Assembly (NCBI GenBank): GCA_020849535.1
Contig: JADLGB010000006.1
Location: 43,534-107,533, forward strand
DNA from: Candidatus Hydrogenedentota bacterium
GTDB lineage: Bacteria; Hydrogenedentota; Hydrogenedentia; Hydrogenedentales; SLHB01
Reading direction: 5' to 3'
Length of the DNA: 64,000 bases
The stretch's first letter is position 1. Each line of letters begins with the position of its first letter. A model generated the notes under the pieces. That model saw nothing but the letters and a program-made list of their open reading frames with translations. It had not been told where the DNA came from and made no database searches. Below are positions 1 through 45,900 of this stretch, piece by piece. Made by a program: the position numbers and the translations under genes.

Positions 1-3000
1 TCTCGGAACACCCCGTCATTCGTGTGGCGGCCCTTTCAGATTGGCCCCCTTTTGACTTCGCTGGCCCGGAGGGAGACTACACCGGTATTGACGCGGATGT
101 GGTCCGCCGTCTGGCGGAGTTAGCCGGGTTCCAGATTGAGGAAGTGCCAGGGAAATGGCCTGACCTCTACCGCATGCTACGGAATGGGGAGTTGGACCTG
201 TGTCCCGGCATGCAGGAATCGGCGGAGCGCCGGGAAGATGTCCTGTTCACGCATTCCTTCTTGAGCTTCCCACATGCCATCTATTCGCGCGGGGAACTTG
301 AGGGGGTGACTCGCGTTTCCGATCTGGCGGGAAAGCGTGTCGCGGTCGAGAGCAACTACTACGAGCACGAGTATCTCGCCAAAAACCACCCCGGGATCGA
401 GCTGGTCGTGGTGCCGAACTCGCTCGAAGCGCTCATCAAAGTCTCGAATGGCGAGGCGGAAGCCTATATCGGAAACGTGGCGGTATCGTCCTATCACATC
501 GACAAGAATGTTCTCACCAATCTCCACATGGGTTCCATGGCCGATCTGGGCCAGTTGGAGTTGACGATCGGTGTTCGCAAGGACTACCCGATACTTGTGG
601 GCATCCTGAACAAGGCCATTGCGGCGCTCACGCCCGAAGAGAAGCACGCGATCGTGCGGCGGCACGTGGTGGCGCGTCCTCAAGTCTCACTGACGGAGGA
701 GGAGCGTGCGTGGATCCGCGCGCATCCGGAGATCCGCTTGGGCATCGATCCCGAATTCGCTCCCTTCGAGTTTGCAGGGAAAGATGGTAAGTACCTGGGC
801 ATGGCATCGGATTATGTGCGCCTCTTGAACGACCGGATGGGGCTTAACATGCAGGTTGTCGAGAAGGGGTCCTGGGAGCAGGCCGTCTCGATGGCGAAGG
901 ACCGGGAACTGGATGTGCTGCCTTGTGTCGGACGCACGCGCGAGCGCGAAGCGCTCTATGTGTTCTCGCAGCCGTATCTGTCGTGGCACCGGGTCGTAAT
1001 CACCCGCCTCGACACGCCATTTACGGGAGATCTTCAGGATTTGGCGGACTACAGGGTGGCCGTTCAGAAGGGTTCATCGCACCACGGTTATATCGTGGAG
1101 AAAACTGCGCTCGATTTCATGCCATGTGAGACGTTTGAGGAAACGCTGATGGCTGTCGCACGGGGTGACGCGGACGCGGCCCTGGGCAATGCGGCCACCT
1201 CCGCATATTGGATTCGCAGCCTCGGACTCACCAATCTGAAGCTGGCCGTTCCCTTGGGCGACAGCGCCGACGACCTCCACTTCGCCGTCCGCAATGATTG
1301 GCCGGAACTGGCGGGCATCATCGACAAAGGACTGCAAAGCATCACAGAAGAAGAGGCCGTAACCATCCGCCAGAAGTGGATGGAGATCGATGTCCAGCCG
1401 GGGAACGATCTGCGGCGGATCGGCGCGGTAGTGGCGTTGACCATTGCGGCGGTCGTGCCGGTCCTTCTTCTCATCGCCGTCCATTACCGCAGGCTGCGTA
1501 GAGAAATGGAGGTGCGGCTGCGCACGCAGAGCGCGCTGGAGGCGAGCGAGGCGAACTACAGGACCTTGGTGGAAAGCGCGAACAGCGTCATCCTCCGCAT
1601 GAAGCCGGACGGCACGGTGACGTTCTTCAATACGTTCGCGGAACGCTTTCTCGAGTATTCCGCCAGCGAGATCGTTGGGAAAAGCGTGATTGGCACGATC
1701 GTGCCGGAAACCGATTCGGCGGGACGCGACCTGCGCAACTTGATGGAAGAGTTGGGCAGGGAACCCGAACGTTTTCAGGTCAACGAGAACGAAAATATGA
1801 CGAAGGCCGGGAGACGGGTGTGGATCGCCTGGACCAACCGGCCCCTTTATGACGCGCAGGGCAACCTGAGTGAAGTGCTTTGTGTTGGGAACGACGTGAC
1901 CGAGCCGCGCAAGACCGCGGACATGCTGCGGCGTTACGAGTTCATCGTGAACACCGTCGAGGAGATGATGAGTGTTGTCAGCGCGGAGGGTATCTACGAA
2001 GCCGTGAACGACGCGTGGTGCGCCATGGTGGGAGTGAGCCGGGAGGAAGCTGTTGGAAGCCCCGTGTCGGGGGTGTGGACGGAGGCGGTCTCGAACGAAT
2101 TCATCAAGCCGAGGATAGACGCGTGTCTGGCGGGGCAACGCGTTTCATACGAGACGATTCTAGACTTGCCCGCGAAGGGGAAACGGTACTGCGAGGTTCG
2201 GATGTATCCCTTCACGGGGCACACGCATGCGGTTACGTACGTGATCGTCGTGGCCAAGGACGTGACCGAACGGAAGAAGTACGAAGCCGAACTCGAGGAG
2301 GCCAAGCTGGCCGCTGAGGCGGGAAATCGGGCGAAGAGCGTGTTTCTTGCGAATATGTCGCATGAGATCCGGACCCCCATGAATGCGGTTCTCGGGTATA
2401 CGCAGCTTCTGCAGCGGATCCCGGGCTTGTCGCCGGAGCAGGAGTACGCGCTGGACGCGATCCGCCGCAGCGGCGATCATCTACTGCGGCTGATCAGCGA
2501 TATCCTCGAGCTTTCCCGGATCGAGTCGGGGCACACCCACCTCGAATTGACGACGTTTAACCTGAGCGAGATGTTGAACGACCTCGACGTCATGTTTCGT
2601 GTGAGGACGAACCACAAGCGAATTGCGTTCGAGGTGGAGGCGAGCGAGGATCTTCCCATTCATATTCGGGCCGATCGCAATCGCATCTTCCAGGTCCTCA
2701 TCAATCTGGTGGGAAACGCGCTGCGGCATACGGACCGGGGACGGGTCACCGTGCGGGCGCGCCGCAACCTTGAGGCGGCGTCCAGTCACACACACGTGCA
2801 TCTTCTGTTCGAAGTCGAGGATACCGGCCACGGGATCGAGGCCGCCGACCTGGAGGCCATATTCGGCAGCTTCGCGCAGGCGGGTTCCAAGGGTTCCCGG
2901 CAAGGAGGGGCTGGACTTGGGCTGACGATCAGCCGGAGCTTCGCGCGGATGATGGGCGGCGATGTATCGGTATCTTCGGAGCTTGGCAAAGGGACGTGTT

Positions 3001-3731
3001 TCCGGTTCACGGTTGCAGTTGAACTCGGCGATGCGCGCGACACCCGGGCGGCAGCGGCCCCGCGAAAGGTCCTGCGTCTGTGCGAGCGCCAACGAGGTAC
3101 GCGAGTCCTCATCGTGGACGATCGCGACACGAACAGGGACCTGCTGGGCCGGCTTCTAACGCATCTGGGTTTCAGCACAAGAGAGTCGGAGAATGGACTG
3201 GAGGCCCTGCAGGTCATGGAGGAATGGATGCCGCGAATCGTCCTCGTTGACCTGGTCATGCCGGTGATGGACGGGTGGGAGACGATCCGCCGCATCCGTG
3301 CGATGCCGGGTGGACGCGACACTGTGACCGTGATAGCGCTCACCGCAAGCACGATGAATGACATGAAGGACTCTGTCATCGCGGAAGGGGCAGACGCTTT
3401 TCTCTCGAAGCCTTTCCGCGAGGAGGAACTTCTCGAGGAAATGCGGTTGCACGCCGGATTGGAGTACATTTACAGCGACCGGAAGCCCACGAAGGATGAG
3501 GAACCCCATGAGGAACTCACGCTGGAGCTTGCGCGGAGCGCGCTCAGCAGGCTGCCGGAGGAATTGCGCACCCAACTGCGGTCGGTGGTCACGCGGGGCG
3601 CGATCAGCGAGTCTCGCGCGCTCGTGACGCGCGTGCGTGAATACGACACGGCGCTGGCCGAGATCCTGCACCGGCGCACGGAGAGTTATACACTGGAAGA
3701 GCTGGGTCCGCTCTGGAAAGAGGAAGTATGA
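1..3731 (+). CDS. Hybrid sensor histidine kinase. The 5' end probably lies upstream of the window (frame open back to base 3; track start 24 is a GTG). Domain order: two periplasmic solute-binding (SBP family 3-like) domains, TM, PAS/PAC repeats, HisKA, HATPase_c, C-terminal receiver.
   Basis: Translation shows two repeats of the SBP-like pattern (…DWPPFDF…GIDADVV… and …GIDPEFAPFEF…DYVRLL…) and a TM helix (AVVALTIAAVVPVLLLIAV). H-box LANMSHEIRTPMNAV is present. The G1/G2 ATP-lid reads GHGIEAADLEAIFGSF…GGAGLGLTISR. Receiver motif is RVLIVDDRDTNRDLL…LVDLVMPVMDG. Confidence 0.85.
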   Translation, partial: SEHPVIRVAALSDWPPFDFAGPEGDYTGIDADVVRRLAELAGFQIEEVPGKWPDLYRMLRNGELDLCPGMQESAERREDVLFTHSFLSFPHAIYSRGELEGVTRVSDLAGKRVAVESNYYEHEYLAKNHPGIELVVVPNSLEALIKVSNGEAEAYIGNVAVSSYHIDKNVLTNLHMGSMADLGQLELTIGVRKDYPILVGILNKAIAALTPEEKHAIVRRHVVARPQVSLTEEERAWIRAHPEIRLGIDPEFAPFEFAGKDGKYLGMASDYVRLLNDRMGLNMQVVEKGSWEQAVSMAKDRELDVLPCVGRTREREALYVFSQPYLSWHRVVITRLDTPFTGDLQDLADYRVAVQKGSSHHGYIVEKTALDFMPCETFEETLMAVARGDADAALGNAATSAYWIRSLGLTNLKLAVPLGDSADDLHFAVRNDWPELAGIIDKGLQSITEEEAVTIRQKWMEIDVQPGNDLRRIGAVVALTIAAVVPVLLLIAVHYRRLRREMEVRLRTQSALEASEANYRTLVESANSVILRMKPDGTVTFFNTFAERFLEYSASEIVGKSVIGTIVPETDSAGRDLRNLMEELGREPERFQVNENENMTKAGRRVWIAWTNRPLYDAQGNLSEVLCVGNDVTEPRKTADMLRRYEFIVNTVEEMMSVVSAEGIYEAVNDAWCAMVGVSREEAVGSPVSGVWTEAVSNEFIKPRIDACLAGQRVSYETILDLPAKGKRYCEVRMYPFTGHTHAVTYVIVVAKDVTERKKYEAELEEAKLAAEAGNRAKSVFLANMSHEIRTPMNAVLGYTQLLQRIPGLSPEQEYALDAIRRSGDHLLRLISDILELSRIESGHTHLELTTFNLSEMLNDLDVMFRVRTNHKRIAFEVEASEDLPIHIRADRNRIFQVLINLVGNALRHTDRGRVTVRARRNLEAASSHTHVHLLFEVEDTGHGIEAADLEAIFGSFAQAGSKGSRQGGAGLGLTISRSFARMMGGDVSVSSELGKGTCFRFTVAVELGDARDTRAAAAPRKVLRLCERQRGTRVLIVDDRDTNRDLLGRLLTHLGFSTRESENGLEALQVMEEWMPRIVLVDLVMPVMDGWETIRRIRAMPGGRDTVTVIALTASTMNDMKDSVIAEGADAFLSKPFREEELLEEMRLHAGLEYIYSDRKPTKDEEPHEELTLELARSALSRLPEELRTQLRSVVTRGAISESRALVTRVREYDTALAEILHRRTESYTLEELGPLWKEEV

Positions 3732-6046
3732 AGAATCAGGATACCTGGAACAGACCGGAGCTACAAGACTGCGACGTACTTATCGTGGATGACAATCCGG
3801 AGAACCTGAAAGTCTTGGGGGATTTCCTGGCGGCGCAAGGGTTCAATGTGCGAATCGCCAGGGATGGTAGCAAGGCCGTGGCCAGCGCGAAAGCCTCACC
3901 GCCGGATCTCATCCTGCTGGATATTCATATGCCCGTGATGGACGGGTATGAGGCCTGCCAGATTCTGAAAGCCACGCCCAGCCTTCAGGACATACCGGTG
4001 ATCTTCCTGAGTGCGCTGGGTGAAACGTTCAATGTGGTGAAGGGATTCGAGTGCGGCGGTGTGGACTACATCACCAAACCGTTCGAATTGGAGGAGGTGC
4101 GTATCCGAGTGAATACGCATCTTCAGATCCGGCGTCTGCTGGTGGAAAGCAGAGCGGGATTCCGCAGCAGTTTCGAGCAGTCCGTGGTGGGCATGTTTCA
4201 TCTGGATCTGGATGGACGGATTATTGCGGCAAACCGGCGCCTGTACGGGATGCTGGGGTACGGTCCTCACGAACTTCACATGAAGGCTATCGATGCCCTA
4301 GGCGCCGCGGCGTCCGATTCGTGCCTCACGGACGCCGTGAAGCGAATCGCCGCGGGCGAACGTATGGAAGCACCGGTAGAGGCGGAGTATCGCAAGAAGG
4401 ACGGCCAGGGTGTGCTGTGCAGAACCACGTTGTCCCTGGTCACTGTGGGTTCGCCGAGGGACCGTTATGTCGCAGGCATCGTGGAGGACATATCGGCCAT
4501 CAAACACGCGGAACGAAGCCTCGCGCGGCAGGCGGCGGCCTTGGAACAGGCCGCGGAATCGATCGTGATCACCGACGCCGACGGGATCGTGCAATACGTC
4601 AATCCGGCCTACGAGGCGGCCTCGGGCATGGCTCAGGAGGATTGCCTGGGCAGGCGGTTTCCAGTATTTGACTCGGCCCACGAAGACGGGGATGGGCAAC
4701 CCGGCGAGATTTGGCGGACAATTACTTCCGGCGAACCCTGGAAAGGGCGGATCGCGGGCGTGCGGAAGGAAGGGAAGGGGTATGTCGAGGAATACAGCAT
4801 AACGCCGGTGCGTGTCGCGGGAGCCGGAATTGTCAATTATGTGTCCGTGGCGAGAGATATCACCGGGCAATTGCAGCTCGAAGAGCAGTTGCGGCAGGCG
4901 CAGAAGATGGAGGCCATCGGCACGCTTGCCGCGGGGATCGCGCACGATTTCAACAATGTACTATCCGGCATTGTCGGTTTCGCGGAGCTGGCCCTGGACG
5001 AGCTGCCCGCGGACGGCAGCGCGCGCGACAGCATTGGGGAAATCCTCAGGGCCTCCGAGCGGGCGCGCGAGCTGATCGCGCAAATCCTTGCCTTCAGCCG
5101 GCACAAGGAATCGCGGGTGGCGTCAATCCATGTTCAAGACGTGGTCCGAGATACACTCAAACTGGTGCAGCGGTCCATTTCGCCGAGCATTGAGGTTGTA
5201 GCGGAGCTGGCGGATGATTGCGGCCCGGTCATGGCGGACCCGTCGGGGATTCACCAGATTGTGATGAATCTGTGCACCAATGCCTACCATTCCATGCAGG
5301 GCACGGATGGCCGCTTGAACGTGCGAATCACGCAGACAGAAATCGACAAGGAGTATCTACAAGGACATCCCAATCTGTTGCCCGGCACTTACATTCGTCT
5401 GGAGGTGAGCGATACTGGGCATGGGATGGACAAAGCGACTATGCAGCGCATCTTCGAGCCGTACTTCACGACAAAGGGCGTGGGAAAGGGAACGGGGCTC
5501 GGGTTGTCGACCGTCCACGGCATCGTGAAGAGTTTGAACGGGACAATCAATGTTTATAGTGAAGTGGGAGTGGGGTCGACGTTTGCCATACTCCTGCCCG
5601 TGGCCCAGAGGGAGGAGCCGTCGGGCCTGCCCGCGCACACCAAGGGCACGCCGGACATCAGCGGTAACGAACGGATTCTATTCGTGGACGATGAAGAGTC
5701 CATTTGCCTCTTCGTGGAAGCGGCACTGAGCCGGCTCGGGTACAAGGTAGTCACGCTGACCGATCCCGTGCACGCCCTCGAACTACTCAAGTCGAGCCCA
5801 ATCCCGTTCGATGCTGTCGTTACTGATGAGGTCATGCCGGGAATCAGGGGGACGGAACTGTGCAGCCATATCTGGCGAATCAAACCCAATCTCCCGGTGA
5901 TTCTGTGCTGCGGTTACCCGGCAGCCGTTCGAAGCACTCCCGGAGAAGAGGGCACATTTGCCGCAAGCCTGACCAAGCCCATGAATGTTTCCGATCTGGC
6001 AAGGACCATTCGCGAGGTGGTGGGAAAGAAGCCCAACGGGAAGTGA
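3728..6046 (+). CDS. Hybrid histidine kinase / response regulator (REC-PAS-PAS-HisKA-HATPase_c-REC). Its ATG overlaps the stop of the upstream kinase (ATGA).
   Basis: N-terminal receiver is DVLIVDDNPENLKVL…LILLDIHMPVMDG. H-box reads GIAHDFNNVLSGIVGF. ATPase motifs are SDTGHGMDKATMQRIFEPYFTTK…GTGLGLS. C-terminal receiver is ILFVDDEESICLF…. Confidence 0.85.
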   Translation: MKNQDTWNRPELQDCDVLIVDDNPENLKVLGDFLAAQGFNVRIARDGSKAVASAKASPPDLILLDIHMPVMDGYEACQILKATPSLQDIPVIFLSALGETFNVVKGFECGGVDYITKPFELEEVRIRVNTHLQIRRLLVESRAGFRSSFEQSVVGMFHLDLDGRIIAANRRLYGMLGYGPHELHMKAIDALGAAASDSCLTDAVKRIAAGERMEAPVEAEYRKKDGQGVLCRTTLSLVTVGSPRDRYVAGIVEDISAIKHAERSLARQAAALEQAAESIVITDADGIVQYVNPAYEAASGMAQEDCLGRRFPVFDSAHEDGDGQPGEIWRTITSGEPWKGRIAGVRKEGKGYVEEYSITPVRVAGAGIVNYVSVARDITGQLQLEEQLRQAQKMEAIGTLAAGIAHDFNNVLSGIVGFAELALDELPADGSARDSIGEILRASERARELIAQILAFSRHKESRVASIHVQDVVRDTLKLVQRSISPSIEVVAELADDCGPVMADPSGIHQIVMNLCTNAYHSMQGTDGRLNVRITQTEIDKEYLQGHPNLLPGTYIRLEVSDTGHGMDKATMQRIFEPYFTTKGVGKGTGLGLSTVHGIVKSLNGTINVYSEVGVGSTFAILLPVAQREEPSGLPAHTKGTPDISGNERILFVDDEESICLFVEAALSRLGYKVVTLTDPVHALELLKSSPIPFDAVVTDEVMPGIRGTELCSHIWRIKPNLPVILCCGYPAAVRSTPGEEGTFAASLTKPMNVSDLARTIREVVGKKPNGK

Positions 6047-6073: not shown

Positions 6074-7471
6074 CTACAGACCATATTCCGCAGGGATAAA
6101 CTCGCCGGAGAATTGGGCCATGTACGACGCGGCAGCGTTGTCGCCCTGGGCCTCGTAGGAGTCCAGCCCCGCCATGAGCATTTCGAGCCAAGGGATTTCG
6201 ATGTCCGGCAGGCTCAAACGTTTGCTCTCGACAGCTTCTCCAATGATCAGCAGGGCTTCGCGTCCCGCACGCAGCGTGCGCTTAGCGCGATCGGGCGTTG
6301 AGATGATTGCGCGCGCGATGCGGATGCTCGACACCGGTGTCAGCACGAGCGCTTCCGCGCTGGTGGCGGCGTCTGAGTTCGCAAGCCAATTGCGCAACTG
6401 AAGCGCACCGCCCGAGCGCCGGGCTTCATTCATCAGCTTGCAGTCATACCAAAGCTGTTCCAGCATGACCTCCGGCGAGTAGCCGCCGAACATCTGCACG
6501 TAGGGCACGGACTCGTTGCTCCAGGTATCGCAGCAAGACATGGCCACATTGCCGATGGGGCTGGTGTGCGCGCAGGCCGCGGACTTGCCTTCCATGGCGA
6601 TGGGAATGCCCGCGATGGCTTTAAGGATCGGCCCTTCGTAGGCGCAATCCTTGTCGGGGCCGGTGGCGCCGCATTCGAGGGCCACGAGCGAACGGGCTGC
6701 GCCCATGGCACGCACCATCCCGGCAAACACGGTGGGCACCATACGCTTGCGGGCCAACTGCATGGACGTGTTGGCAAAACCGCATGCGGCATCGCCTCCG
6801 GCGACTTTGCCGTGTGCGGCGGCAATGGCGCACACGCGATTCCAGAGGAATTCCATATCGTTTGAGGCCAGCACGCCGAGGGCGAAGACCATGCCCCCCG
6901 CGTCGCACTGAAGGATGGCTTTGTCGGAGACTTCCTTGCCACCGGTGGATTCGATCGAGAGGATATCGGAGTACGGGGCGCAGCGCTCGAACGTCTCGAA
7001 CACGAGTTGTGTTTCGGCGCTGGTACGATTGCGCGGGGGACGGACGCGGTCGCGGATGTCGGCAACGGTGGTGCGGAGGGCGGCATGCACGCCCTTGGGT
7101 TGAAACTCGTCGATGACTTCGCGTGTCGCGCGGATGACGCGTTCCCCCCACTCCGGATTCGCGGTCATCTCGAAGACGAGTTCAATCTCGATGATGAGTT
7201 TCGCGACACCGAGGTCGGCGGCGCGCGTCATCACGCCGAGCGCCATCTTGCGGTACAGTTCGACGACCGCGTCGATAGTCGCTGCGCTCACCTCCGTGGC
7301 ATACGGAACGATGTAGTTGATCTCGGGGATGGTCTCCCCCGCTCCGACTGTTATCCCTTGTGACACGCGCACGGGGTGGGGGGCGACACCAAACTGGAGA
7401 TCATCAACAGAGTCGATCGCAAGTGAAGCGAACGTGGGCACGTCAGCTTTTCCCCGCTGAATGGAGGCCAT
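6074..7471 (-). CDS. MtaB-family (methanol:corrinoid methyltransferase B subunit-like) zinc methyltransferase. Start chosen at an internal Met (track ORF extends to 7531).
   Basis: About 465 aa. Motifs recalled from MtaB: …IPEINY…, IESTGGKEV (Glu ligand), [12 protein letters not shown] (Cys), [42 protein letters not shown] (Cys), [11 protein letters not shown]. Family assignment is from memory and no HMM was run. Confidence 0.6.
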
Positions 7472-8351
7472 CCCGGACGGCTGCCGCAATTGCGCGAATG
7501 TGGTCAGGTCCTGTGCCGCAGCAGCCGCCAATGATGTTGGCCCCCGCTTTGATGAGTTCGGGCACGCGAGACGCCATCATCTGCGGCGTTTCGGGATAAG
7601 TGATGCCGCCATCATCGGCACGGTGAGGCATGCCGGCGTTTGGATGAACGAGGATGGGGACAGCAGGCGCGGCCGCGCGAAGGTCGCGGATGACTTCGAT
7701 CATTTCCACTGGTCCGAGGCTGCAGTTGGCGCCGAGGATGTCCGCCCCCTCATTGAGCATCCCCGCGGCCATGTCCGCGATGGAGACGCCCATCATGGTG
7801 CGGTAGCCCGTGTCGGTGCGCATGTTGAAGGTGAATGAGGCCACGACTTCCAGAGCGGTGTTTTCTTTCACCGCGCGCACGGCAATGGCGGCCTCGTCGA
7901 GCGCGGCCATGGTTTCCACGCTGCACGCGTCCGCTCCGCCGCGTTCCAGAGCGATCGCCTGTTCGGCGAAGGCCTCGTAGAGCTGCTCTTCCGCTACGTC
8001 GCCCATCATGAGCAGTTTGCCAGTGGGGCCCATGGAAGCGAGGACGTGGAGGGTGTTGCCCGCGATTTCACGAGACAGGCGTGCAGCGGCTTCATTGAGT
8101 TCGGGCGCGCGGCGTGCAAGGCCGTGGGGTTCCAGCGTGATGCGGGAGCCTCCGAAACTGTTGGTCATGATGATGTCGGCGCCCGCATCAGCGTACGACT
8201 TGGCAATGTTTCTCACGACGTCCGGGTGTTCGACATTCCAGAGTTCAGGGCACTCGCCCGCCCCCAGGCCAGCGGCGACGAGGAAGGTCCCCCATCCTCC
8301 ATCGGAGACAAGAATGCCTTTCCGTGCGATGTCATCTCGGATGCTCTTCAT
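7443..8351 (-). CDS. Homocysteine S-methyltransferase domain protein (MetH N-terminal module as a stand-alone protein).
   Basis: Zinc-site motifs are …GANCSLGP… and …[14 protein letters not shown]…. Overall Pfam S-methyl_trans-like barrel sequence ([13 protein letters not shown]…[11 protein letters not shown]…). Start placed at the internal ATG preceded by GGGGGG. Confidence 0.75.
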
Positions 8352-8368
8352 TGTACCCCCTGAACCAG

Positions 8369-9082
8369 TCATCTTCTGCGAAAGCAGGTTTTCATCGTAC
8401 AGACCATGCATGCATTCGTCGCGCGCTCGCACTCGGGACCCATGCCGATGAGGCCGCTGACGGATTTCACCGGGAGCATGAGGGCGGTCTCCGTGAGCGA
8501 GATTCCGCAAAAAGCACGCGGAAACAAGGAAAACAGCGCATGTTGTTCGGAGACATCCCACTCGCAGAAACCGGGGCTGAAGCGGCTCGTGGTGAAGCAG
8601 CCCAGCCCGATCGCGTAGTCGATAACTCGCTCTTCGATCCAATCGGCGGCGCGTTCGACAAGCTCCGAGCCTATGGTGTCCGCGACATACCCCCGGACGG
8701 GGTCGCCAGCCGCGAACTGGGCGCGAATCCAGGTGTCCACTTCGGGTCCGGCCGTCGCGGCGTAGAGCGCCACCTCCCGCGCACCCGACAGCAGACCCGC
8801 GATCCGCTCACCCGGATGGAATACCGTGCCGCCCAAGTGCACGCTCATGCCGTCCAAGTGGACGTCCGCGGGATGAAACAGTCGAACTCCCGCTTTCGCG
8901 TTGGCGTGGCGTTGTGCCTCAATGAGCAGTTCCGCGATCACGCCCGGGACAGGGTCGGGCGCTTGCCCTGGTTCATAGCCCATGGCCCATTCGACATGGG
9001 TGGGATTCAGCGCAAGGGTCTCGAATTCAACTGAGTACTCCACGCCGTCGAGGAGCGGAGCATCTACTTCCAGGAAGTTCAT
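8369..9082 (-). CDS. MetH-type reactivation (AdoMet-binding 'Met_synt_B12'-like) domain protein. Start uncertain.
   Basis: About 240 aa. Position and size fit the C-terminal activation module of cobalamin-dependent methionine synthase, next to the B12-binding and Hcy-binding modules. Similarity is judged by eye only. Confidence 0.45.
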   Translation of the reverse strand: MNFLEVDAPLLDGVEYSVEFETLALNPTHVEWAMGYEPGQAPDPVPGVIAELLIEAQRHANAKAGVRLFHPADVHLDGMSVHLGGTVFHPGERIAGLLSGAREVALYAATAGPEVDTWIRAQFAAGDPVRGYVADTIGSELVERAADWIEERVIDYAIGLGCFTTSRFSPGFCEWDVSEQHALFSLFPRAFCGISLTETALMLPVKSVSGLIGMGPECERATNACMVCTMKTCFRRR

Positions 9083-9179
9083 ACTGCATAGTTCCGATAG
9101 GGCGCGGCATTGCCGGCGTATGGGCGGCGCCATGTGAGCGTTGGCGAAACCGTCCAGCGTCGCGTCCGCAAGCGATCCC

Positions 9180-9848
9180 TCAGGCGACGGCGCCCACCAG
9201 GTAATCGAGCGCGCCTTGCGGGTCGGGTGCGTAGGCGTCCGCACCGATCTTCTTGGCGTACTCAGCGGTCAGCGGAGCGCCGCCGACGATGATCTTGGTG
9301 TCGGGATGCTGCGTGCGCACGGCCGCCACAGTCTTCTCCATATTGACCATGGTCGTGGTCAGCAGCGCACTCAAGCCGACCGCGCTTCCTGGGTGAGACT
9401 TGAGTGCATCCAGAAACTTTTCGGTGCTGACATCCACGCCGAGGTCGATGACTTCCCAGCCGCCGCCTTCCATCACCATGCTGACGAGGTTCTTGCCGAT
9501 GTCATGGAGGTCGCCCTGCACGGTACCGATGATGAAGGTGCCGCGATGCTTGGCCTCTCCGGACTCGAAGAAGGGTTTCAGGTGCACCATGGCCGCCTGC
9601 ATGGCCTTGGACGCCATCAGGAGATCGGGCACGAAGACCTTGTTCTCGCTGAACTTTCTGCCGATGGAGTTCATGCCCACCACCAGCCCCTGGGCGAGCA
9701 CTTCACTCGGCGAAACACCCATTTCGAGGGCGGCCTTGGTGAGTTCGTGGGCGCCATCCTGACCCTTCAGGTCGGGTGGGTAGGGTGATGTGGCGTTGAC
9801 TTTGCCGCGTTCGATGCATGTCGCAATACGTTGAAGAATGTCGTCCAT
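9180..9848 (-). CDS. Corrinoid (cobalamin-binding) protein, MtaC/MtbC/MetH-B12-domain-like.
   Basis: Has an N-terminal helical B12-cap followed by a Rossmann B12-binding domain. The DxHxxG motif reads GTVQGDLHDIGKNLV, and …SALLTTTM… follows. Good RBS (GGGAGG) lies upstream. Confidence 0.8.
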   Translation of the reverse strand: MDDILQRIATCIERGKVNATSPYPPDLKGQDGAHELTKAALEMGVSPSEVLAQGLVVGMNSIGRKFSENKVFVPDLLMASKAMQAAMVHLKPFFESGEAKHRGTFIIGTVQGDLHDIGKNLVSMVMEGGGWEVIDLGVDVSTEKFLDALKSHPGSAVGLSALLTTTMVNMEKTVAAVRTQHPDTKIIVGGAPLTAEYAKKIGADAYAPDPQGALDYLVGAVA

Positions 9849-9881
9849 GATGCCTCCCTCTCTTCCCGTAGAATCCGGCCT

Positions 9882-10994
9882 TTAGTATCGGCCCAATTCC
9901 ATGCCCCGTTCAACAAAAAAGCGATAACTGTCGTACTCCACCTGGTCCGGGATGGAGTGGTCCGAGTGCAAGACGTAGCCAAACCGGCCTTTGACCACTG
10001 GGATCTTCTGGCGAAGTTCCGCATCGATACGCTGGCGGTCGTTCGAGTACAACACGCGCACGTCGATGCCCCCCATCAAGGATAAGCGTTCGCCATAGTC
10101 CCGGTAAAGTGCGAGCAGATCCATGCCGGCCTTCACCTCGATGACTTGAAGGCAATCAATGCCTGCTTCGAGCATGCCGGGCAGGAGCGGCTCCACGTAG
10201 CCGCAGGAGTGCATGATGACCGGCAGGCCGTGGCTGCGCGCGAAGTCGATGGTGCTGCGGTGGCCCGGCTGGATGATGGCGCGGTACATGTCCAGGGAGA
10301 AGAAGGGTCGGCCCTTGAAGCCCATGTCCTCGTAGAACCAGAGGCCATCGGGATAGCCCTCTTCGGCGAAGAGGATCTCCATGAGGCTCACCGCCAGACG
10401 GGAGTAGGTGTCGACCATGTCGCACACCCATTCGGGGTCCACGGCCATCCCCATCAGCATGTACTCGTGCCCGCAAACCGGGTGCATCATCTCAAACACG
10501 TTGGTGCCCGACCACGCGAAGAAGCGGTTGCCTTCCCGCGCCTGGCGCCGGGCGTTGCGATACCCCTCGAAATCGATGCGGGCGCGGTCCGGCGAGAGAT
10601 GGGGCTTGGCGTGCTCTTCCCAGGTGGCGCGGTCGCGCACGAGAAAATCCACGTGCTCCGGGGTCGCGTCGTGGAGCTTGTGGCGGCGCAGGACCGCGCC
10701 GTTCCCGTCGCGGGTCAGAACGGTCTCCTCATTCTCGTCGATGATCTCCGGGACGTAGTCCAGTCTGGCCGTCATGTTGAAGGGCCAGAAGAGTTGGAGG
10801 TCGAAGTTGAAATGGTCTTCCAGCGATTCGCCGGGGCGGAGGTGGCCCGCGGCGGTCCACTTCTTCTGGGTGTCGCCCCAGAAGTGCTCGTACAACCCGA
10901 TGCGGTCGACGGGCTTTCGCTTGAGAATGTTGCCGATGCGCTCGACGCCGGTCATGAGGGACTTGCTTTCAATATTTGGGATCGCCGCCGACAT
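9882..10994 (-). CDS. URO-D family methyltransferase (MtaA/CmuA-like methylcorrinoid or substrate:corrinoid methyltransferase).
   Basis: About 370 aa with a URO-D-like fold signature. GGGAGG RBS upstream. It overlaps the next URO-D paralog by 26 nt. Confidence 0.7.
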   Translation of the reverse strand: MSAAIPNIESKSLMTGVERIGNILKRKPVDRIGLYEHFWGDTQKKWTAAGHLRPGESLEDHFNFDLQLFWPFNMTARLDYVPEIIDENEETVLTRDGNGAVLRRHKLHDATPEHVDFLVRDRATWEEHAKPHLSPDRARIDFEGYRNARRQAREGNRFFAWSGTNVFEMMHPVCGHEYMLMGMAVDPEWVCDMVDTYSRLAVSLMEILFAEEGYPDGLWFYEDMGFKGRPFFSLDMYRAIIQPGHRSTIDFARSHGLPVIMHSCGYVEPLLPGMLEAGIDCLQVIEVKAGMDLLALYRDYGERLSLMGGIDVRVLYSNDRQRIDAELRQKIPVVKGRFGYVLHSDHSIPDQVEYDSYRFFVERGMELGRY

Positions 10995-12141
10995 GCAGCA
11001 CCTCCCGTTTGCGATCCAGGTAATACTTGTACAAGTCCAAGCTTACGTCGGCGGGAACCCGGTGATCCACGCCGGGGATGAAGCCGCCCTGTTCAACATA
11101 GGGTTTGAGCCGTTCGAGTTCCGCGTCAATGGCCGCGCGGGAATGCGCGAGCTTGCGCTTGCAGAAGCCTCCCCAGAGGCGAATGCGCTTGCCGTAGCGT
11201 TCGCGCAGCAGACAAGGGTCTGTGCCCGCGTGGACTTCCACGGGGAACATAGTGTTCATGCCGTTGTCGAGAAAGGTCTCGACGATGGGAAGGATGTTAC
11301 CGTCCGTGTCCGTGGTGTATACGCAACAGCCGTGGGCCACGAGCAAGTCGGCAATACGCCGGTACCAGGGTCCGACGACGGCGTGGAAGAAGTCCGGGGG
11401 AATGATGGGCCCCATGTTGAAGCAGATATCTTCCCATCCCATGCAGAAGTCGGCCTGGATGCGCGGCAAGGCGCGCTTCAATACGGCCACCGTGGCTTCA
11501 CCAAAGGTATTGATGATCTCCGTGAGCAGGATGGGATCTTCGTAAGCCATCGTGGCGATGCGTGCGAAGCCGATGAGGTTGCGGGGCACCCCCACCATGC
11601 TTCCCCCATAGACGCCGACGGGGACACCGCTGCGCAAGGCGATGGCAAGCGAGTCTTCAAATTCCTTCCAGCGTTCGGGCGCGTCGGGATCGAGTGCTTT
11701 CTTGTAGGGCTGCCACGTCGCGGCGTCCTTGACGGGATAGTCCAGAAAGTGCGGGATGGACTTGTCGCCGTGCTTATTGATGCGCGCGATCCAGCCCAAC
11801 TCGTCGCGGTAGGTCATGTGACTATCATCTTCTTCGAGGATGGCATATTCGCAGACGGGCAATGGATTCGATGTGACGTTGAGCCACAGCCAGCTCTCAA
11901 TGCCAAAGTAGTCGTACGCGGTCGCTTCACCAACGACGGTTTCGGGCAGGCCTTGCTCGTGCCAGGACTCGAGCGTGCGACCCCAGTAGCCGAACTCGAA
12001 GTTGGGGAGCGTGACGACGTCTTGGAAGAACATGGTGCGGCGGAAGCGCTCGCGCAGAGTGAGCGCCTCGCCTGCGGCATGCGGTAACACCGCAGTGCCG
12101 CGCGCACTGCTTAGAGTGCCAGCGATTTCGCTATAGTCCAT
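10969..12141 (-). CDS. URO-D family methyltransferase (MtaA-like), second paralog.
   Basis: Start re-assigned to internal ATG (MDYSEIAG…), verified as 'cat' at 12139-12141 and preceded by GGGGGGAA. The track ORF extended upstream spuriously. Confidence 0.7.
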   Translation of the reverse strand: MDYSEIAGTLSSARGTAVLPHAAGEALTLRERFRRTMFFQDVVTLPNFEFGYWGRTLESWHEQGLPETVVGEATAYDYFGIESWLWLNVTSNPLPVCEYAILEEDDSHMTYRDELGWIARINKHGDKSIPHFLDYPVKDAATWQPYKKALDPDAPERWKEFEDSLAIALRSGVPVGVYGGSMVGVPRNLIGFARIATMAYEDPILLTEIINTFGEATVAVLKRALPRIQADFCMGWEDICFNMGPIIPPDFFHAVVGPWYRRIADLLVAHGCCVYTTDTDGNILPIVETFLDNGMNTMFPVEVHAGTDPCLLRERYGKRIRLWGGFCKRKLAHSRAAIDAELERLKPYVEQGGFIPGVDHRVPADVSLDLYKYYLDRKREVLHVGGDPKY

Positions 12142-12421
12142 GATTCCCCCCGTTCGCCGATATGGTACCGCACTTCGTGCGGCAGATGCACGAAGCCACA
12201 CGGACGTGCACGGACCGACACGGACAGACACGGACGGACACGGACCGGCACCGACAAAGAGAAGACTGAGGCCCCCACCGCGCACGGGGACGAGGCAGTC
12301 CTTGCTGTCCTTGCTGTCCTTTTCGAGATTTGCTTTCCCAGACTCAGTCGATATACTGGGCACTGGCGGCCAAGTTGCGCATGCGGTGCCGCCGTGAAGT
12401 GGCATCTCAGGGGGTTTCACC

Positions 12422-13429
12422 ATGACGTCGCGAGAACGCGTGTATCGCTGTTTGAACTTTGACCATCCGGACCGGGCGCCGCGGGACTTGTGGTACCTGG
12501 CGGGGGTCTCGATGCTCCGCGCGCCGGAGCTGGAGCGGATGTTGGACCGCTTCCCCATGGACTTCGAGCAGGCGGTGGGCCGCTACGGCGAGGCGGCGCG
12601 CACGCGCGGGACGGTGGCGGAAGTGGGCACCTACACCGACGCGTGGGGTTGCGTGTGGTCGGTGGCGGAGATTGGCGTGTGCGGCGAGGTGAAGCATCCG
12701 CCGCTGGCGGACTGGGCCGCGCTCGAGGACTACTCGGCGCCGTGGGAGATGTTGAAGGGCGCGGATTTCTCCGCGACGGACGCCCAGTGCGAGGCGTCGG
12801 ACCGCTTCGTGAAGGCGGGTACTGAGGTACGGCCCTTCGAGCGGATGCAGTTCCTGCGGGGCACCGAGAACTTGCTCATGGACCTCACGCTCCAGCCCCC
12901 GGAACTCTTCGAGCTGCGAGACTTGCTGCACGAGTTCTTCATGGCGGAATTGGAGCTGTGGTGCAGCACCAAAGTGGACGCCATCAGTTTCATGGACGAT
13001 TGGGGCGCCCAGGGGAATCTGCTCATCTCGCCGGACCTGTGGCGTTCGTTTTTCAAGCCGATGTACAAGGACTACTGCGACCTCATCAAAGGCGCGGGGA
13101 AGCGGGTGTTTTTCCACTCGGACGGATGTATCCGGGCGATCATCCCCGATTTGATCGAGGTCGGGGTGGACGCGCTGAACAGTCAGCTCTTCTGCATGGA
13201 TATCGAAGAGATCGGGCGCTCGTTCCAGGGCCAAATTACGTTCTGGGGCGAGATCTGCCGGCAGAACATTCTTCCGTTCGGCACGCCGGAGGAAGTGCGA
13301 GCGGCGGTGCGCCGGGTACGCAAGGCGCTGGACCGGGGCAACGGCGGCGTTATCGCGCAGTGCGAGTGGGGCATTCGAGATCCTGTGGCGAATATCGAGG
13401 CGGTCTTCGAGACGTGGAGTGAAGAGTAG
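12422..13429 (+). CDS. URO-D family methyltransferase (MtaA-like), third paralog, divergent from the preceding genes.
   Basis: 335 aa, N-terminus MTSRERVYRCLNFDHPDRAP; clearly similar in length and pattern to the other two URO-D-like proteins. Confidence 0.7.
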   Translation: MTSRERVYRCLNFDHPDRAPRDLWYLAGVSMLRAPELERMLDRFPMDFEQAVGRYGEAARTRGTVAEVGTYTDAWGCVWSVAEIGVCGEVKHPPLADWAALEDYSAPWEMLKGADFSATDAQCEASDRFVKAGTEVRPFERMQFLRGTENLLMDLTLQPPELFELRDLLHEFFMAELELWCSTKVDAISFMDDWGAQGNLLISPDLWRSFFKPMYKDYCDLIKGAGKRVFFHSDGCIRAIIPDLIEVGVDALNSQLFCMDIEEIGRSFQGQITFWGEICRQNILPFGTPEEVRAAVRRVRKALDRGNGGVIAQCEWGIRDPVANIEAVFETWSEE

Positions 13430-13725: not shown

Positions 13726-14160
13726 TCATCGCTCTGACTCGCTTCCCTCGCCTTGAGCCGGGCACTCCCCCCGTTCTTGGCAATTATTGGTGGACAACAG
13801 ACTGTGTACCAGATTGAGCAGGTTTGGGCCGTCGACGGGTTTGGCTACGTAGCGGTAGCTTTCCCCGTTCTTCGAGCCGTTGCCCGCGAAGACGATCCCC
13901 GAACCCGACATAACAATCACGGGCAGATTCGGAAACTCGTCGTGCAGGATGGACATTGTCTCAGTCCCTTCCTGCTCCGGCATCATGATGTCCGTGATGA
14001 CCAGGTCTGGACGCTCGTGGCGGCACAAGTCCACACCGTCCCGGCCATTTTCAGCGTCCCAGACTTCGTGACCGTCTTGCTCCAGGATCAATCGAAACGT
14101 GAGACGGAGGACGGGCTCGTCGTCGATGACTACTATACGCGACATGCTCCTGTTCTCCAT
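13726..14160 (-). CDS. Single-domain response regulator (CheY-like receiver).
   Basis: Receiver motifs RIVVIDDEPVLRL…DLVITDIMMP…PVIVMSGSG. Start could be 14160 or 14145. Confidence 0.75.
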   Translation of the reverse strand: MENRSMSRIVVIDDEPVLRLTFRLILEQDGHEVWDAENGRDGVDLCRHERPDLVITDIMMPEQEGTETMSILHDEFPNLPVIVMSGSGIVFAGNGSKNGESYRYVAKPVDGPNLLNLVHSLLSTNNCQERGECPAQGEGSESER

Positions 14161-14567
14161 CGTTTCGAGTGAAGCCCCCCATTGGAGAAGCCGGTTGAGT
14201 TCTCTTCCCTGCACGAGCCGGGTAGATACCGATTCCCCCTCCCGGGGACGTTTGGACTAACCGTCAGGACCATCCAGACCCTTACTGGCCATCACGTCCA
14301 CTATAATGCACGAAGCGTGCCAGCTTTGGCTGGTGCGGCCATTCAGAGTCTAATTTGTTTACTTACAGTTAGTTATCCTCAGAAGTGCGATGAAGACGCC
14401 CAACGGGACCACAAAACACAGGCGTTCATTAGTACAGCTTTGCACAGTACACAGATGTCCTTTTTGGGGGGAAATTGTCCTGAAATATCTAAAGTCAATA
14501 CACGTTCAAGCCCAATGGCCCTGTTTTCGACATAATGGCGGTCCAAAGTGGGCCGCTGGCCCTCCTC

Positions 14568-14740: not shown

Positions 14741-14849
14741 GATTGCGCGCCTGCTAAGCACGGTTAGATTGCTCTGAAATCTCCCCTCTTGACATACCTG
14801 GAGGTTCATGGTACTTTATACCTTGAACTCCAAAGTAGAGGGCGTAATC

Positions 14850-15185
14850 ATGAAACTGGACAAAGAACTCGTTGGCGCAAGCACGAGCCTGCTTGTGCTT
14901 TCCACCCTGGCGCGGGAAGCCACCTACGGCTACCGGCTTATCAAAGCCATCAACAAGGAAGCGGACGGCCTCTTCGAGTGGCAGGAGGGCACGGTCTACC
15001 CCATTCTGCACAAGCTGGAGAAGGAGGGGCTCGTCCGCGCGCAGTGGCAGACGGCGGACACCGGGCGGCGGCGGAAGTACTACTACATCACCGCAGGCGG
15101 GCGCGAAGCCCTGGGCCAAGGCGTCGAGCAGTGGGAACGCTGGCACGGCATGGTCATGAAGCTGGGGGAAGCACGCAATGGATAA
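14850..15185 (+). CDS. PadR family transcriptional regulator.
   Basis: Winged HTH pattern …LLVLSTLAREATYGYRLIKAINKEADGLFEWQEGTVYPILHKLEKEGLV…YYYITAGGREAL. A 23-bp palindrome TTCATGGTACTTTATACCTTGAA lies just upstream with a TTGACA -35. Confidence 0.85.
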   Translation: MKLDKELVGASTSLLVLSTLAREATYGYRLIKAINKEADGLFEWQEGTVYPILHKLEKEGLVRAQWQTADTGRRRKYYYITAGGREALGQGVEQWERWHGMVMKLGEARNG

Positions 15186-18642: not shown

Positions 18643-19734
18643 TCACACAAACAAGACCGCCTCGGCCATCAGGCCGGGGCCGAAGCCGAGGGCGACGCAG
18701 GGCCGTGGCGCTTTGCTGTCTCGCAGGCGCTTGAGGATGAACAGGATCGTCGGGGATGACATGTTGCCGTGATCGCGGAGGACTTCGCGGGAGACGGCGA
18801 GGGCTTCTCTGTCGAGTCCTAGGGCTTTGCTGGTTGAACTCAGGATGCGTGGCCCGCCCGGGTGAACAGCCCATGACCTTATGTCGTCTATTCCATACTC
18901 AAAGTCTGCTAACCATCCCTCTATCCACGGTTTCAGGTGGGTGCCGATGAGTTCGGGCACGCGGCTGGACAAGGACATGATGAACCCGTTGTTGCCGATG
19001 CGCCAGGTCATGGCGTCTTCGGAGTCGGGGATCAAACAAGAGCCGGTGGCGGCGACCTGCCAAGGGCCTTCGCCGACGACATCCGCGGCGGCACCGACGA
19101 TGGCGGCGGAACCATCGGCGAAGAGGGCGTTCGCGACGAGCTGGTCGGGATGCCAGCCGTAGTGATAATGCAGGCTGCACAACTCGACAGCGCACAGCAG
19201 CACGCGCGCACTGGGATCGCTCTCCGCGAATCCGCGCGCGGCGCGAAGTCCATTAAGCGCGCCGTGACACCCCATGAACCCGACGTGGACGCGCTGGGTC
19301 GTCGCGGGGAGACCCAGTTGCTTGATGAGTCCAATGTCTACACCGGGCGCGGCGAACCCGCTGCACGACACGGTGACCAGATGCGTGATTTCGCCGGGCT
19401 GAATCTGTGATGCGTCCAGCGCTTCCTGGGACGCCTGGACCGCCAATGGTAACGCTTCGCTTTCGTACTTGGCCATGCGCTCGCGGATGGATGGACCCAG
19501 TTGGCAGGCACCGTTGGGAGACGGAAAGAACGATACGCGGTTGGGCGTGCCTTCGGGTCCGTCGAGGACGACGGTGTGGCGTTTCTCCACGCCGGTCATT
19601 CTGTAAAGGAGTTTTAGTTGGCGCTTCTGCTCTTCCGTCTCGCAGAAGGCTTCTCGTGCGTACTCGACGGACTCCTCGAAGTTGATGGAGTGAGGGGGTA
19701 GCGCGGTGCCTTGTCCGAGAATCGAGAACTTCAT
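18643..19734 (-). CDS. Type III polyketide synthase (chalcone/stilbene synthase family).
   Basis: Start re-assigned to MKFSILGQ… (ATG at 19734). Catalytic Cys context reads VTVSCSGFAAPGVDIGL. It also has …GFMGCHGALNGL… and the C-terminal GFGPGL motif of type III PKS. The track ORF N-extension is spurious. Confidence 0.85.
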   Translation of the reverse strand: MKFSILGQGTALPPHSINFEESVEYAREAFCETEEQKRQLKLLYRMTGVEKRHTVVLDGPEGTPNRVSFFPSPNGACQLGPSIRERMAKYESEALPLAVQASQEALDASQIQPGEITHLVTVSCSGFAAPGVDIGLIKQLGLPATTQRVHVGFMGCHGALNGLRAARGFAESDPSARVLLCAVELCSLHYHYGWHPDQLVANALFADGSAAIVGAAADVVGEGPWQVAATGSCLIPDSEDAMTWRIGNNGFIMSLSSRVPELIGTHLKPWIEGWLADFEYGIDDIRSWAVHPGGPRILSSTSKALGLDREALAVSREVLRDHGNMSSPTILFILKRLRDSKAPRPCVALGFGPGLMAEAVLFV

Positions 19735-21637: not shown

Positions 21638-21781
21638 TCTCGGGCCTGTCGCATGGGGCTCGCAACAGGCGAAATACCTCAGTTACCCGAGTCTAGCCTG
21701 GATTCCTCACCAGTGAGCCTACGCGCCACTGCCAGAGCATATCTCACCGCCCACTACGTGGGGGGCTGTGAGATATGCGAT

Positions 21782-36553: not shown

Positions 36554-36769
36554 AGGTATCCTTACAAAATCAATGCATACGTGGGCCGTGACAGACGGCC
36601 CACGCACGCGAGCTTACCTAACGTGCAGGATGTCAGAAAAGTAACGCACATGCTACATGGCTTTCGCACTACTGGAGAGTACCGAATTATCGGATAATGC
36701 TTCCCGTGTATTTTCGGACATGTTCCGAGTTCTTGCGGATTTCTCGCAAAGTCTGGGCCCGGTGAAAAA

Positions 36770-45803: not shown

Positions 45804-45900
45804 GCGCTCCCCTCCTCTCCAAGTCTTCTTTTGCTGTCCCGCACCTTGGGGCCGCCAACAAAACCCACAGATACATCAAAATAGCTATAGGGTCGCAAGG

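Follow-up and report, generated by a model that had tools for sequence, protein, structure and literature searches.

The window analysed here is a 64,000-nucleotide stretch of a Candidatus Hydrogenedentota genome (contig JADLGB010000006.1, positions 43,534 to 107,533), and its positions 6074-13429 hold seven adjacent genes of corrinoid-dependent methyl transfer. They encode an MtaB-like methyltransferase, a stand-alone MetH-type homocysteine methyltransferase barrel (HMT), a stand-alone protein resembling the activation domain of MetH (Act), a corrinoid carrier protein (CP) and three paralogues of the URO-D fold (UE, UF and UG). Judged from sequence and gene order, the chances are about even that this locus is a modular methionine synthase that has no folate module, is able to use methanol and unloads its corrinoid hub onto homocysteine. 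We favour this reading because HMT is the only acceptor of recognisable specificity in the window and is accompanied by a MetH-style reactivation protein. A broader proposal, to which we give somewhat less credence, is that Hydrogenedentota and some Bacteroidales possess an undescribed B12-dependent, folate-independent methionine synthase of the MetH-barrel type, whose corrinoid protein would be fed by methanol and by URO-D-fold donors with a D-x-D/D-H ligand set. The combination of modules is well supported by synteny across two phyla; its function we infer.

Gene neighbourhoods of the cluster and its relatives

The window proteins were mapped onto 69 fetched loci (L001 to L069). Conservation of the neighbourhood had been suggested as a check in an earlier note made from the sequence of this DNA, and orthologous seven-gene clusters were indeed found in L001/L007, together with PadR and response-regulator genes and an MtaB that is 74% identical, and in L006, where MtaB is 93% identical and the short contig ends before the regulators. 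Since these loci belong to other Hydrogenedentota metagenome-assembled genomes (MAGs), the seven-gene arrangement is conserved and no chance juxtaposition.

For a linkage count, 15 distinct Hydrogenedentota MtaB loci had enough flanking sequence, and HMT lies directly upstream of MtaB in nine of them (L001, L006, L008, L009, L012, L014, L015, L018 and L057). HMT and MtaB also cluster in three Bacteroidota loci (L030, L044 and L051), in which HMT is 50-53% identical and the genes are ordered differently. HMT-CP-MtaB-Act is the order in both L044 and L051; this would be a compact four-gene version of the system in Bacteroidales. L030 contains HMT, Act, CP, MtaB and the activase RACo; the block of L044 stands beside a divergent URO-D gene (just upstream), a LacI regulator and an MFS_2 sugar transporter. 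In Firmicutes/acetogen loci (L028, L048, L052, L053 and L054) the gene that directly follows MtaB-CP encodes a pterin-binding methyltransferase, and in termite-gut Bacteroidales an H-x-C URO-D gene (KHCCG) is found between MtaB and CP (L027, L031) or directly after MtaB (L047). It is this lineage-wise exchange of the second methyltransferase beside MtaB-CP that provides the strongest argument for HMT as the enzyme that unloads the carrier.

The split methionine synthase fed by methanol that the earlier note had put forward thus gains comparative support from HMT-CP-MtaB(-Act) arrangements across Hydrogenedentota and Bacteroidota. MtaB is optional, as L064 shows. There, UG is divergent from a UF-CP-Act-HMT array from which MtaB and UE are missing, HMT is 78% identical to that of the window, and the polyketide synthase, PadR and response-regulator genes are syntenic with those of the window. 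L068 and L069 likewise carry UF-UE-CP-HMT without MtaB, and L067 has a UF-UE-CP core without HMT, diverged versions of which occur in Verrucomicrobia (L065).

Several further arrangements were recorded. An URO-D gene directly follows MtaB in L027, L029, L031, L035, L041 and L047, which come from termite-gut and other Bacteroidales MAGs, and in L027, L031, L035 and L041 genes for a corrinoid protein and Act come after the pair; such clusters would be a methanol system outside acetogens and methanogens, with a thiol as acceptor. On a 2-Mb contig, L062 (7245-12041) encodes a 62% identical HMT homologue; two H-x-C URO-D genes and one for PadR come after it, and a gene for a CobA-type corrinoid adenosyltransferase precedes it, with no corrinoid protein nearby. 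Away from MtaB, too, HMT is therefore found together with URO-D enzymes. In L069 (9990-15182), UF-UE-CP-HMT is followed by a fourth URO-D gene and genes for formyltetrahydrofolate synthetase (FTHFS), a stand-alone 287-aa Pterin_bind protein and methylenetetrahydrofolate reductase (MTHFR); among the loci fetched it is the only one that links the system to folate one-carbon (C1) enzymes. MtaB-family genes also occur as orphans, lacking a corrinoid protein gene within 10 kb, in L005, L019, L032 and L059, that of L005 sitting between glycoside hydrolase genes and a catalase gene.

Predicted roles of the encoded proteins

The MtaB-like protein matches PF12176 with 484 bits (cut-off 25) over profile positions 3-460 of 460 and aligns to Methanosarcina barkeri MtaB (2I2X) with 290 bits and 37% identity; it misses the cut-off of the stricter methanogen equivalog MtaB_Meth of NCBIfam (NF040651; 417 vs 720 bits). 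Chain positions 164, 220 and 269 of 2I2X align to the glutamate of SIESTGG, the cysteine of AACGFANT and the cysteine of DKDCAYEG, and the residues at these positions are invariant in 37 of 37 aligned MtaB-family sequences, bacterial and archaeal. They are reportedly (Hagemeier 2006) the zinc ligands Glu164, Cys220 and Cys269 of the M. barkeri enzyme. The family assignment made in the earlier note is therefore upheld, but its third ligand motif is not: the SAACAH...CCDTWSNES stretch is conserved in the MtaB family, yet in the 2I2X alignment the third site is that of DKDCAYEG. The protein is 41% identical to an Acetobacterium MtaB, and the latter is 34% identical to that of M. barkeri. From these identities and the conserved positions, and on the assumption that the MtaB characterised in acetogens has its orthologue in this Acetobacterium MAG protein, methanol is a reasonable substrate, and the protein is predicted to be a methanol:corrinoid methyltransferase (MT1). 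The family is large (4277 proteins at E ≤ 1e-10); the taxon-labelled members fetched come mainly from Hydrogenedentota and Bacteroidota, and others from Firmicutes, Lentisphaerae, Calditrichota, Anaerolineales, Actinomycetota and several archaeal lineages.

The nearest solved relatives of HMT are the homocysteine (Hcy) domains of MetH, that of Thermotoga maritima (1Q7M) scoring 151 bits against 68 for betaine-homocysteine methyltransferase (BHMT) and 54 for the S-methylmethionine (SMM)-type HMT. Its zinc motifs NCSLGP and GGCCGTGP are kept and align to the zinc cysteines of T. maritima MetH. The stand-alone barrel with a GGCCG motif that had been described is thus confirmed by its PF02574 match and by the Cys3 zinc motifs. 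As MetH Hcy domains use methylcobalamin whereas BHMT- and SMM-type enzymes use small donors directly, transfer from a methyl-corrinoid is favoured, and HMT is predicted to be a methyl-corrinoid:homocysteine methyltransferase (MT2). Against TIGR02082, the MetH equivalog with a cut-off of 1011 bits, HMT scores 186 and CP 128 bits, the modules being separate genes. The best 120 matches of HMT are stand-alone homologues of 60-96% identity, whose taxon labels all read Hydrogenedentes/Hydrogenedentota or unclassified bacterium.

The match of Act to PF02965 is weak and covers only profile positions 123-252 of 273, about half of the domain. Its best PDB match is TM0269 of T. maritima (1J6R, E 2e-6), a separate protein that is reportedly required to reactivate the MetH of that organism, so the protein is probably the stand-alone MetH-type reactivation domain claimed earlier, the family match being partial. 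The RxxxGY motif of reactivation domains reads R-F-S-P-G-F in Act; extended to R-F-S-P-G-F-C-x-W and taken together with a C-terminal C-x2-C-x4-C tail, it is kept in 10 of 11 aligned homologues, L014 deviating in both parts. The four cysteines are common to the proteins of the window, L001, L011, L027, L030, L031, L041, L044, L051 and L064 and are absent from TM0269. The resulting signature, R-[FY]-S-P-G-[FY]-C-x-W plus C-x2-C-x4-C-[FLY]-[RKY]-[RD] (the window protein ends in ...NACMVCTMKTCFRRR), may be an Fe-S or zinc site through which electrons enter during reactivation.

CP, a protein of 222 aa, scores 193 bits with MtgC_2, 163 with TIGR02370 (pyl_corrinoid) and 128 with the MetH model of NCBIfam. 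On these profile scores it is of the methylotroph type (MtgC/MtbC-like) and not MetH-derived; an exact-sequence look-up of CP matched no record. The stand-alone B12-binding corrinoid protein with a DxHxxG motif, as noted earlier, is present (PF02607 and PF02310, GDLHDIG), and the description of the locus as a disassembled MetH holds for the Hcy barrel and the reactivation protein but not for CP.

The three URO-D paralogues are remote from the characterised families. The MtaA-family NCBIfam models score only 24-28 bits with UE, far under their cut-offs, and TIGR01463 (mtaA_cmuA, cut-off 235.4) gives 25.6 bits with UE, 47.5 with UG and no match with UF. None of the three matches a hemE NCBIfam model at E ≤ 0.01, and their PF01208 matches of 31-53 bits are partial in two of three cases. 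At the position of the MtaA H-x-C motif UE has H-S-C followed by S-D-H, UF has D-T-D followed by D-H, and UG has H-S-D (as FHSDG) followed by Q-C-E; the MHSCG of UE aligns to LHICG of MtaA (4AY7), with S-D-H in place of the third cysteine. The distal-ligand position is assigned here presumptively, from alignment to UroD and from the MtaA site. Searches of PDB sequences with the paralogues gave marginal matches only, and narrow family profiles of UE and UG gave nothing significant against the same sequences. An AlphaFold2 model of UF (pLDDT 92.4) had M. mazei MtaA 4AY7 as its top Foldseek match (E 2e-10, TM 0.58/0.66), with UroDs next; by this model UF has the URO-D/MtaA TIM-barrel fold. An hhalign comparison shows UE and UF to be paralogues over their full length (probability 99.9%, 24% identity), and UG is more distant. 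Membership in the URO-D fold family, as proposed in the earlier note, is accordingly retained, and membership in MtaA/CmuA is not, given the scores and the lack of a His-Cys-Cys set.

Among identities considered for these open reading frames (ORFs), hemE (true uroporphyrinogen decarboxylase), which the earlier note had named as an identity that would refute it, was ruled out by the low scores and by an operon context that includes a corrinoid protein. Bona fide MtaA was ruled out by the model scores and by ligand sets other than His-Cys-Cys, and membership in a type 1 mlp cluster by the ligand sets, the low MtaA-family scores and the failure of tblastn to find a RACo homologue in the window.

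Thiol and selenol methyltransferases of the URO-D superfamily use His-Cys-Cys, and its O-demethylases put carboxylates in place of Cys ligands (PMC10418091). Judged by this rule, the ligands of UF and UG suggest donor enzymes of the O type, and those of UE an atypical sulfur-related enzyme. UF and UG are thus predicted to be donor-side methyltransferases, UF acting as an MT1, and UE is, speculatively, a candidate thiol-side methyltransferase or S-methyl demethylase. Orthologues of UG hold the same divergent position in L001, L003, L006, L013, L064 and L069. The family of UF comprises 7649 clusters (50% identity) at E ≤ 1e-3 and 662 at E ≤ 1e-30, which flags a very large uncharacterised URO-D subfamily; its members are nearly all single-domain proteins of about 360-390 aa, and of the 150 best-matching representatives, 135 are at least 340 aa long, with D-x-D/D-H found in 132 of these.

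Taken together, these assignments suggest the following course of events. The MtaB-like zinc enzyme, judging by homology and its conserved ligand positions, would polarise methanol and methylate Co(I)-CP. With their putative carboxylate/His metal ligands, UF and UG would probably load CP from other donors, perhaps, to speculate, O-methyl compounds, and UE, through H-x-C, might act on a sulfur substrate on either the donor or the acceptor side, which is equally speculative. HMT would activate homocysteine at its Cys3 zinc site and take the methyl group from CH3-Co(III)-CP, yielding methionine and Co(I)-CP. Following the T. maritima precedent, Act would restore CH3-Co(III) from oxidised Co(II)-CP with S-adenosylmethionine (SAM) and an electron donor, and its four conserved cysteines may take part in this reactivation of CP. 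The neighbouring PadR protein and single-domain response regulator would probably control expression. In such a hub, a single CP would be served by interchangeable donors (MtaB for methanol, the URO-D-fold enzymes for others) and relieved by interchangeable acceptor modules, with HMT passing the methyl group to homocysteine, UE perhaps to another sulfur compound and, in other lineages, a pterin-binding protein to tetrahydrofolate (THF). Each step is plausible in view of the three-part split MetH of Phaeobacter, which includes a stand-alone Hcy protein and a cobalamin-binding protein (PMC12366255), of the methionine synthases MesA/B/C, predicted to draw methyl groups from corrinoid proteins (PMC7857596), and of the finding that MT1, CP and MT2 of different systems can be mixed in vitro (PMC13618148).

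Alternative readings and known systems

A number of findings weigh against a methionine synthase fed by methanol. HMT is absent from six of the 15 Hydrogenedentota MtaB loci (L003, L010, L011, L013, L019 and L022), four of which keep UE, so homocysteine cannot be the sole acceptor in the clade; one of the six, L003, encodes a RACo activase and a fourth URO-D protein. MtaB in turn is optional, as L064, L068 and L069 show, and methanol can be only one possible donor. Pterin_bind, MTHFR and FTHFS genes lie 3 kb from the cluster in L069, and a folate link may exist outside the window in the present genome too. CP is not of the MtaC type: MtaC models score 97-105 bits with it (cut-offs 420-450), aligning only from about model position 55, and CP lacks the N-terminal domain by which MtaC docks onto MtaB in 2I2X (PMC9842639). 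No SAM or cobalamin riboswitch or other Rfam element was found in or around the operon, and seven genes are a large outlay for the small methyl flux of methionine synthesis. Finally, 'Ca. Abyssubacteria' (Hydrogenedentes) is reported to encode a complete Wood-Ljungdahl pathway and several corrinoid methyltransferases, which have been read as methylotrophy (PMC6121073).

Several of these points would fit a catabolic demethylation or anaerobic methylotrophy, in which MtaB and the URO-D paralogues would take methyl groups off methanol and other methylated or methoxylated substrates and the main sink would be THF (through a pterin-binding enzyme elsewhere and MTHFR/FTHFS or the Wood-Ljungdahl pathway) or a thiol such as sulfide (through UE), with HMT as a biosynthetic side-branch. 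It is favoured by the folate genes near UF-UE-CP-HMT in L069, by the six HMT-less loci with their frequent UE, by the published Hydrogenedentes case (PMC6121073), by the Rnf and pyruvate:ferredoxin oxidoreductase (PFOR) genes that the L001 and L064 clusters abut, by the H-x-C URO-D genes beside MtaB and CP in termite-gut Bacteroidales, and by the four candidate donor enzymes, which suggest harvesting on a catabolic scale. We nonetheless regard it as unlikely, though a contender to be taken seriously. Scans with Pfam found no match to PF00809 (Pterin_bind) in 50 window ORFs with coding-like codon bias, tblastn with the Pterin_bind protein of L069 found no homologue in the whole 64-kb window, and the Hydrogenedentota and Bacteroidota loci fetched, L069 excepted, have none either; the earlier statement that no pterin-binding module is visible thus holds for the window. 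HMT is the operon's only acceptor-type enzyme of recognised specificity, the MetH-style, presumably SAM-dependent Act goes with HMT in many loci, whereas the HMT-less L003 has the RACo-type activase typical of catabolism, and UE does not have the full His-Cys-Cys set of thiol methyltransferases. The readings, those that follow included, are not mutually exclusive: as methyl-THF:corrinoid transfer is reversible, one hub could feed the C1 pool as well as methionine synthesis.

A conventional split MetH that operates on methyl-THF as the housekeeping methionine synthase, its donor being a pterin-binding protein outside the window or one of the URO-D paralogues and MtaB a minor add-on, is improbable in our estimate. 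Split MetH systems are documented in Phaeobacter and T. maritima, stand-alone HMT homologues fill the best 120 matches, a CP-HMT core without MtaB exists in L064, L068 and L069, and Pterin_bind and MTHFR genes are nearby in L069. It is countered by the want of a pterin-binding gene in the 64 kb, the methylotroph type of CP, the absence of a SAM or B12 riboswitch, and regulatory surroundings (PadR and response-regulator genes here, LacI and a sugar transporter in Bacteroidales) that look substrate-inducible; moreover, we know of no URO-D-fold enzyme that acts on methyl-THF, the nearest case known to us being MtoA on tetrahydromethanopterin (H4MPT). Still less probable, and in our judgement scarcely to be expected, is an S/Se-methyl salvage of the mlp kind, in which the URO-D proteins would remove methyl groups from methylthio or methylseleno compounds for recycling into methionine. 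Three URO-D-fold genes with a corrinoid gene recall type 1 mlp clusters, for which recycling into methionine has been proposed (PMC10418091), UE has the H-x-C motif, and the HMT of L062 lies beside two H-x-C URO-D genes; yet the His-Cys-Cys set, near-invariant in Mlps, occurs in none of UE, UF (D-x-D/D-H) and UG (H-x-D), the MtaA-family model scores are far under the cut-offs, a Ram/RACE activase is missing from the window, type 1 clusters occur mainly in Firmicutes, and the presence of MtaB is left unaccounted for.

All parts of the locus thus come from known families and its three-component logic is classical; it is the combination that seems new. With MtaABC, the methanol:coenzyme M (CoM) system of Methanosarcina and methanol:THF system of acetogens, it shares a zinc MT1 with the Glu/Cys/Cys ligand positions, a DxHxxG carrier, an unloading methyltransferase and clustered genes. 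The acceptor enzyme here is a MetH-type homocysteine barrel instead of MtaA (URO-D, CoM) or a pterin-binding protein (THF), the carrier lacks the MtaC N-terminal domain, MtaB stays under the equivalog cut-off (417 vs 720), and reactivation would be by a MetH-type Act instead of RamA/RACo. The Odm/Vdm/Mtv O-demethylases of acetogens and Desulfitobacterium, compared by description only (in part from PMC10418091), are similar in their URO-D MT1 with a carboxylate for Cys, their corrinoid protein and their modular design; they differ in passing the methyl group to THF via a dedicated MT2 and in having a RACE-type activator. Split MetH (T. maritima TM0268/TM0269, Phaeobacter inhibens) likewise has a separate Hcy barrel, B12 carrier and reactivation protein. 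Here, unlike there, neither the operon nor the window yielded a pterin-binding module, MtaB and URO-D-fold enzymes make up the donor side, a methylotroph-type carrier is present, and Act carries the four-Cys signature that TM0269 lacks. MesA, MesB and MesC of anaerobes (Price et al. 2021, PMC7857596) also methylate homocysteine from a methyl-corrinoid protein and not from methyl-folate, but they are MetE-family barrels predicted to act on MtrA or CoFeSP, whereas the barrel here is of the MetH family and has its own carrier and donors in the operon. Type 1 mlp clusters (Kountz and Balskus 2023, PMC10418091) combine several URO-D paralogues with one corrinoid protein in non-methanogens, and methionine recycling has been proposed for them as well; the present locus has other ligand sets, MtaB, HMT and Act, no Ram/RACE in the window, and a host from another phylum. 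In the literature searched, which leaves out most subscription journals, no corrinoid system that pairs HMT with MtaB or with URO-D proteins turned up.

If the locus is a folate-free modular methionine synthase, methanol, and probably O-methyl compounds too, would join the known methyl donors for methionine through a new module chain leading from MtaB or URO-D via a corrinoid protein to a MetH-type Hcy barrel, and the concept of a folate-independent methionine synthase, proposed for MetE-type enzymes, would come to cover the MetH type. Anaerobes that are not methylotrophs would thereby have a direct route from methanol and methoxy carbon to the methionine/SAM pool, and MtaB homologues outside methanogens and acetogens would have a function. 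The locus would also be relevant to how methanol and methoxy groups are turned over in guts, digesters and anoxic sediments.

Locus layout, neighbouring genes and host

The earlier note had called seven adjacent genes of these families, and each one matches Pfam, at or very near the positions it gave (Table 1); every motif quoted in it is present in the translations. Gene starts were refined by comparison with the orthologous cluster and by inspection of Shine-Dalgarno sites. In the window, whose GC content is about 61%, six of the seven ORFs are in a frame with a third-position GC of 0.73-0.86; the HMT frame failed that filter, and Pfam confirms HMT.

Table 1. Coordinates in the window of the methyl-transfer genes, their divergent intergenic region and the conserved neighbours
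Feature	Position	Strand	Family match and remarks
MtaB-like	6074-7471	(-)	PF12176, E 5e-145, 484 bits; likely true start GTG 7441
HMT, stand-alone MetH-type homocysteine barrel	7443-8351	(-)	S-methyl_trans PF02574, E 1.5e-70, 239 bits
Act, stand-alone MetH activation-domain-like, TM0269-like	8369-9082	(-)	Met_synt_B12 PF02965, E 1e-8, 35 bits
CP, corrinoid carrier	9180-9848	(-)	B12-binding_2 PF02607 and B12-binding PF02310; DxHxxG = GDLHDIG
UE, URO-D-fold paralogue	9882-10994	(-)	PF01208, 51 bits
UF, URO-D-fold paralogue	10969-12141	(-)	PF01208, 31 bits
UF/UG divergent intergenic region, presumed promoter/operator	12142-12421		280 bp; short tandem repeats
UG, URO-D-fold paralogue, divergent	12422-13429	(+)	PF01208, 53 bits
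Single-domain response regulator, conserved neighbour	13726-14214	(-)	PF00072
PadR-family regulator, conserved neighbour, candidate regulator of locus	14808-15185	(+)	PF03551

The six minus-strand genes overlap or are spaced by at most 97 nt, and most have good Shine-Dalgarno sites, both of which were counted in favour of the preferred reading. Gaps of 17-29 nt or overlaps had been reported for the locus; the 17 nt between Act and HMT fall in that range, but CP and UE are 33 nt apart and Act and CP 97 nt. HMT and MtaB overlap by 29 nt if MtaB starts at ATG 7471 and are separated by 1 nt if it starts at GTG 7441, which has the better Shine-Dalgarno site and yields a protein of 455 aa as in the orthologues. 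Of the three URO-D ORFs, UE and UF are co-directional with an overlap of 26 nt and UG is divergent, exactly as had been described. Between UF and UG lie the tandem repeats ACACGGACGG (4.8 copies at 12198-12245) and GTCCTTGCT (2.7 copies at 12298-12321), which may be operator sites for the neighbouring PadR protein or response regulator; a scan for promoters and terminators found sites no more frequent than in shuffled sequence. Orthologues of both regulators adjoin the cluster in L001 and L064, those of PadR with 93-96% and those of the response regulator with 83-85% identity, and a 63% identical PadR homologue stands beside the HMT-URO-D-URO-D array of L062.

On the other side, the genes of two hybrid sensor kinases (24-6046, plus strand) run towards MtaB; the first encodes two periplasmic SBP_bac_3 solute-binding domains in addition to PAS, HK and REC. 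They were rejected as part of the locus and are probably unrelated to it, as they are not conserved beside the cluster in L001 and L064.

In each of the three database searches the best matches bear the label Candidatus Hydrogenedentes or Hydrogenedentota, and UF is 100% identical to a protein on a 168-kb Hydrogenedentes contig. NCBI places this phylum in the FCB group, and the PVC-type host surmised in the earlier note is therefore dismissed. Its aerobic or facultative lifestyle fares no better: the Rnf and PFOR genes beside the cluster in relatives and four radical-SAM genes in the window (43105-49790, minus strand; three B12-binding and one SPASM) make an anaerobic lifestyle more likely than an aerobic one. 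Together with the methyl-transfer locus, the radical-SAM block points to heavy use of cobalamin.

Elsewhere in the window, genes for a type III polyketide synthase, an FAD monooxygenase and a SAM methyltransferase stand in a row (18643-21682, minus strand), a trio that resembles Srs-type phenolic-lipid (alkylresorcinol) clusters; a polyketide synthase gene also adjoins the methyltransferase locus in L064 (L064 1-127). Two copies of the Acido-Lenti-1 RNA (RF01687), both above the gathering score, were detected at 36769-36815 (minus strand, 51 bits) and 37001-37045 (plus strand, 43.7 bits), on opposite strands and about 190 nt apart.

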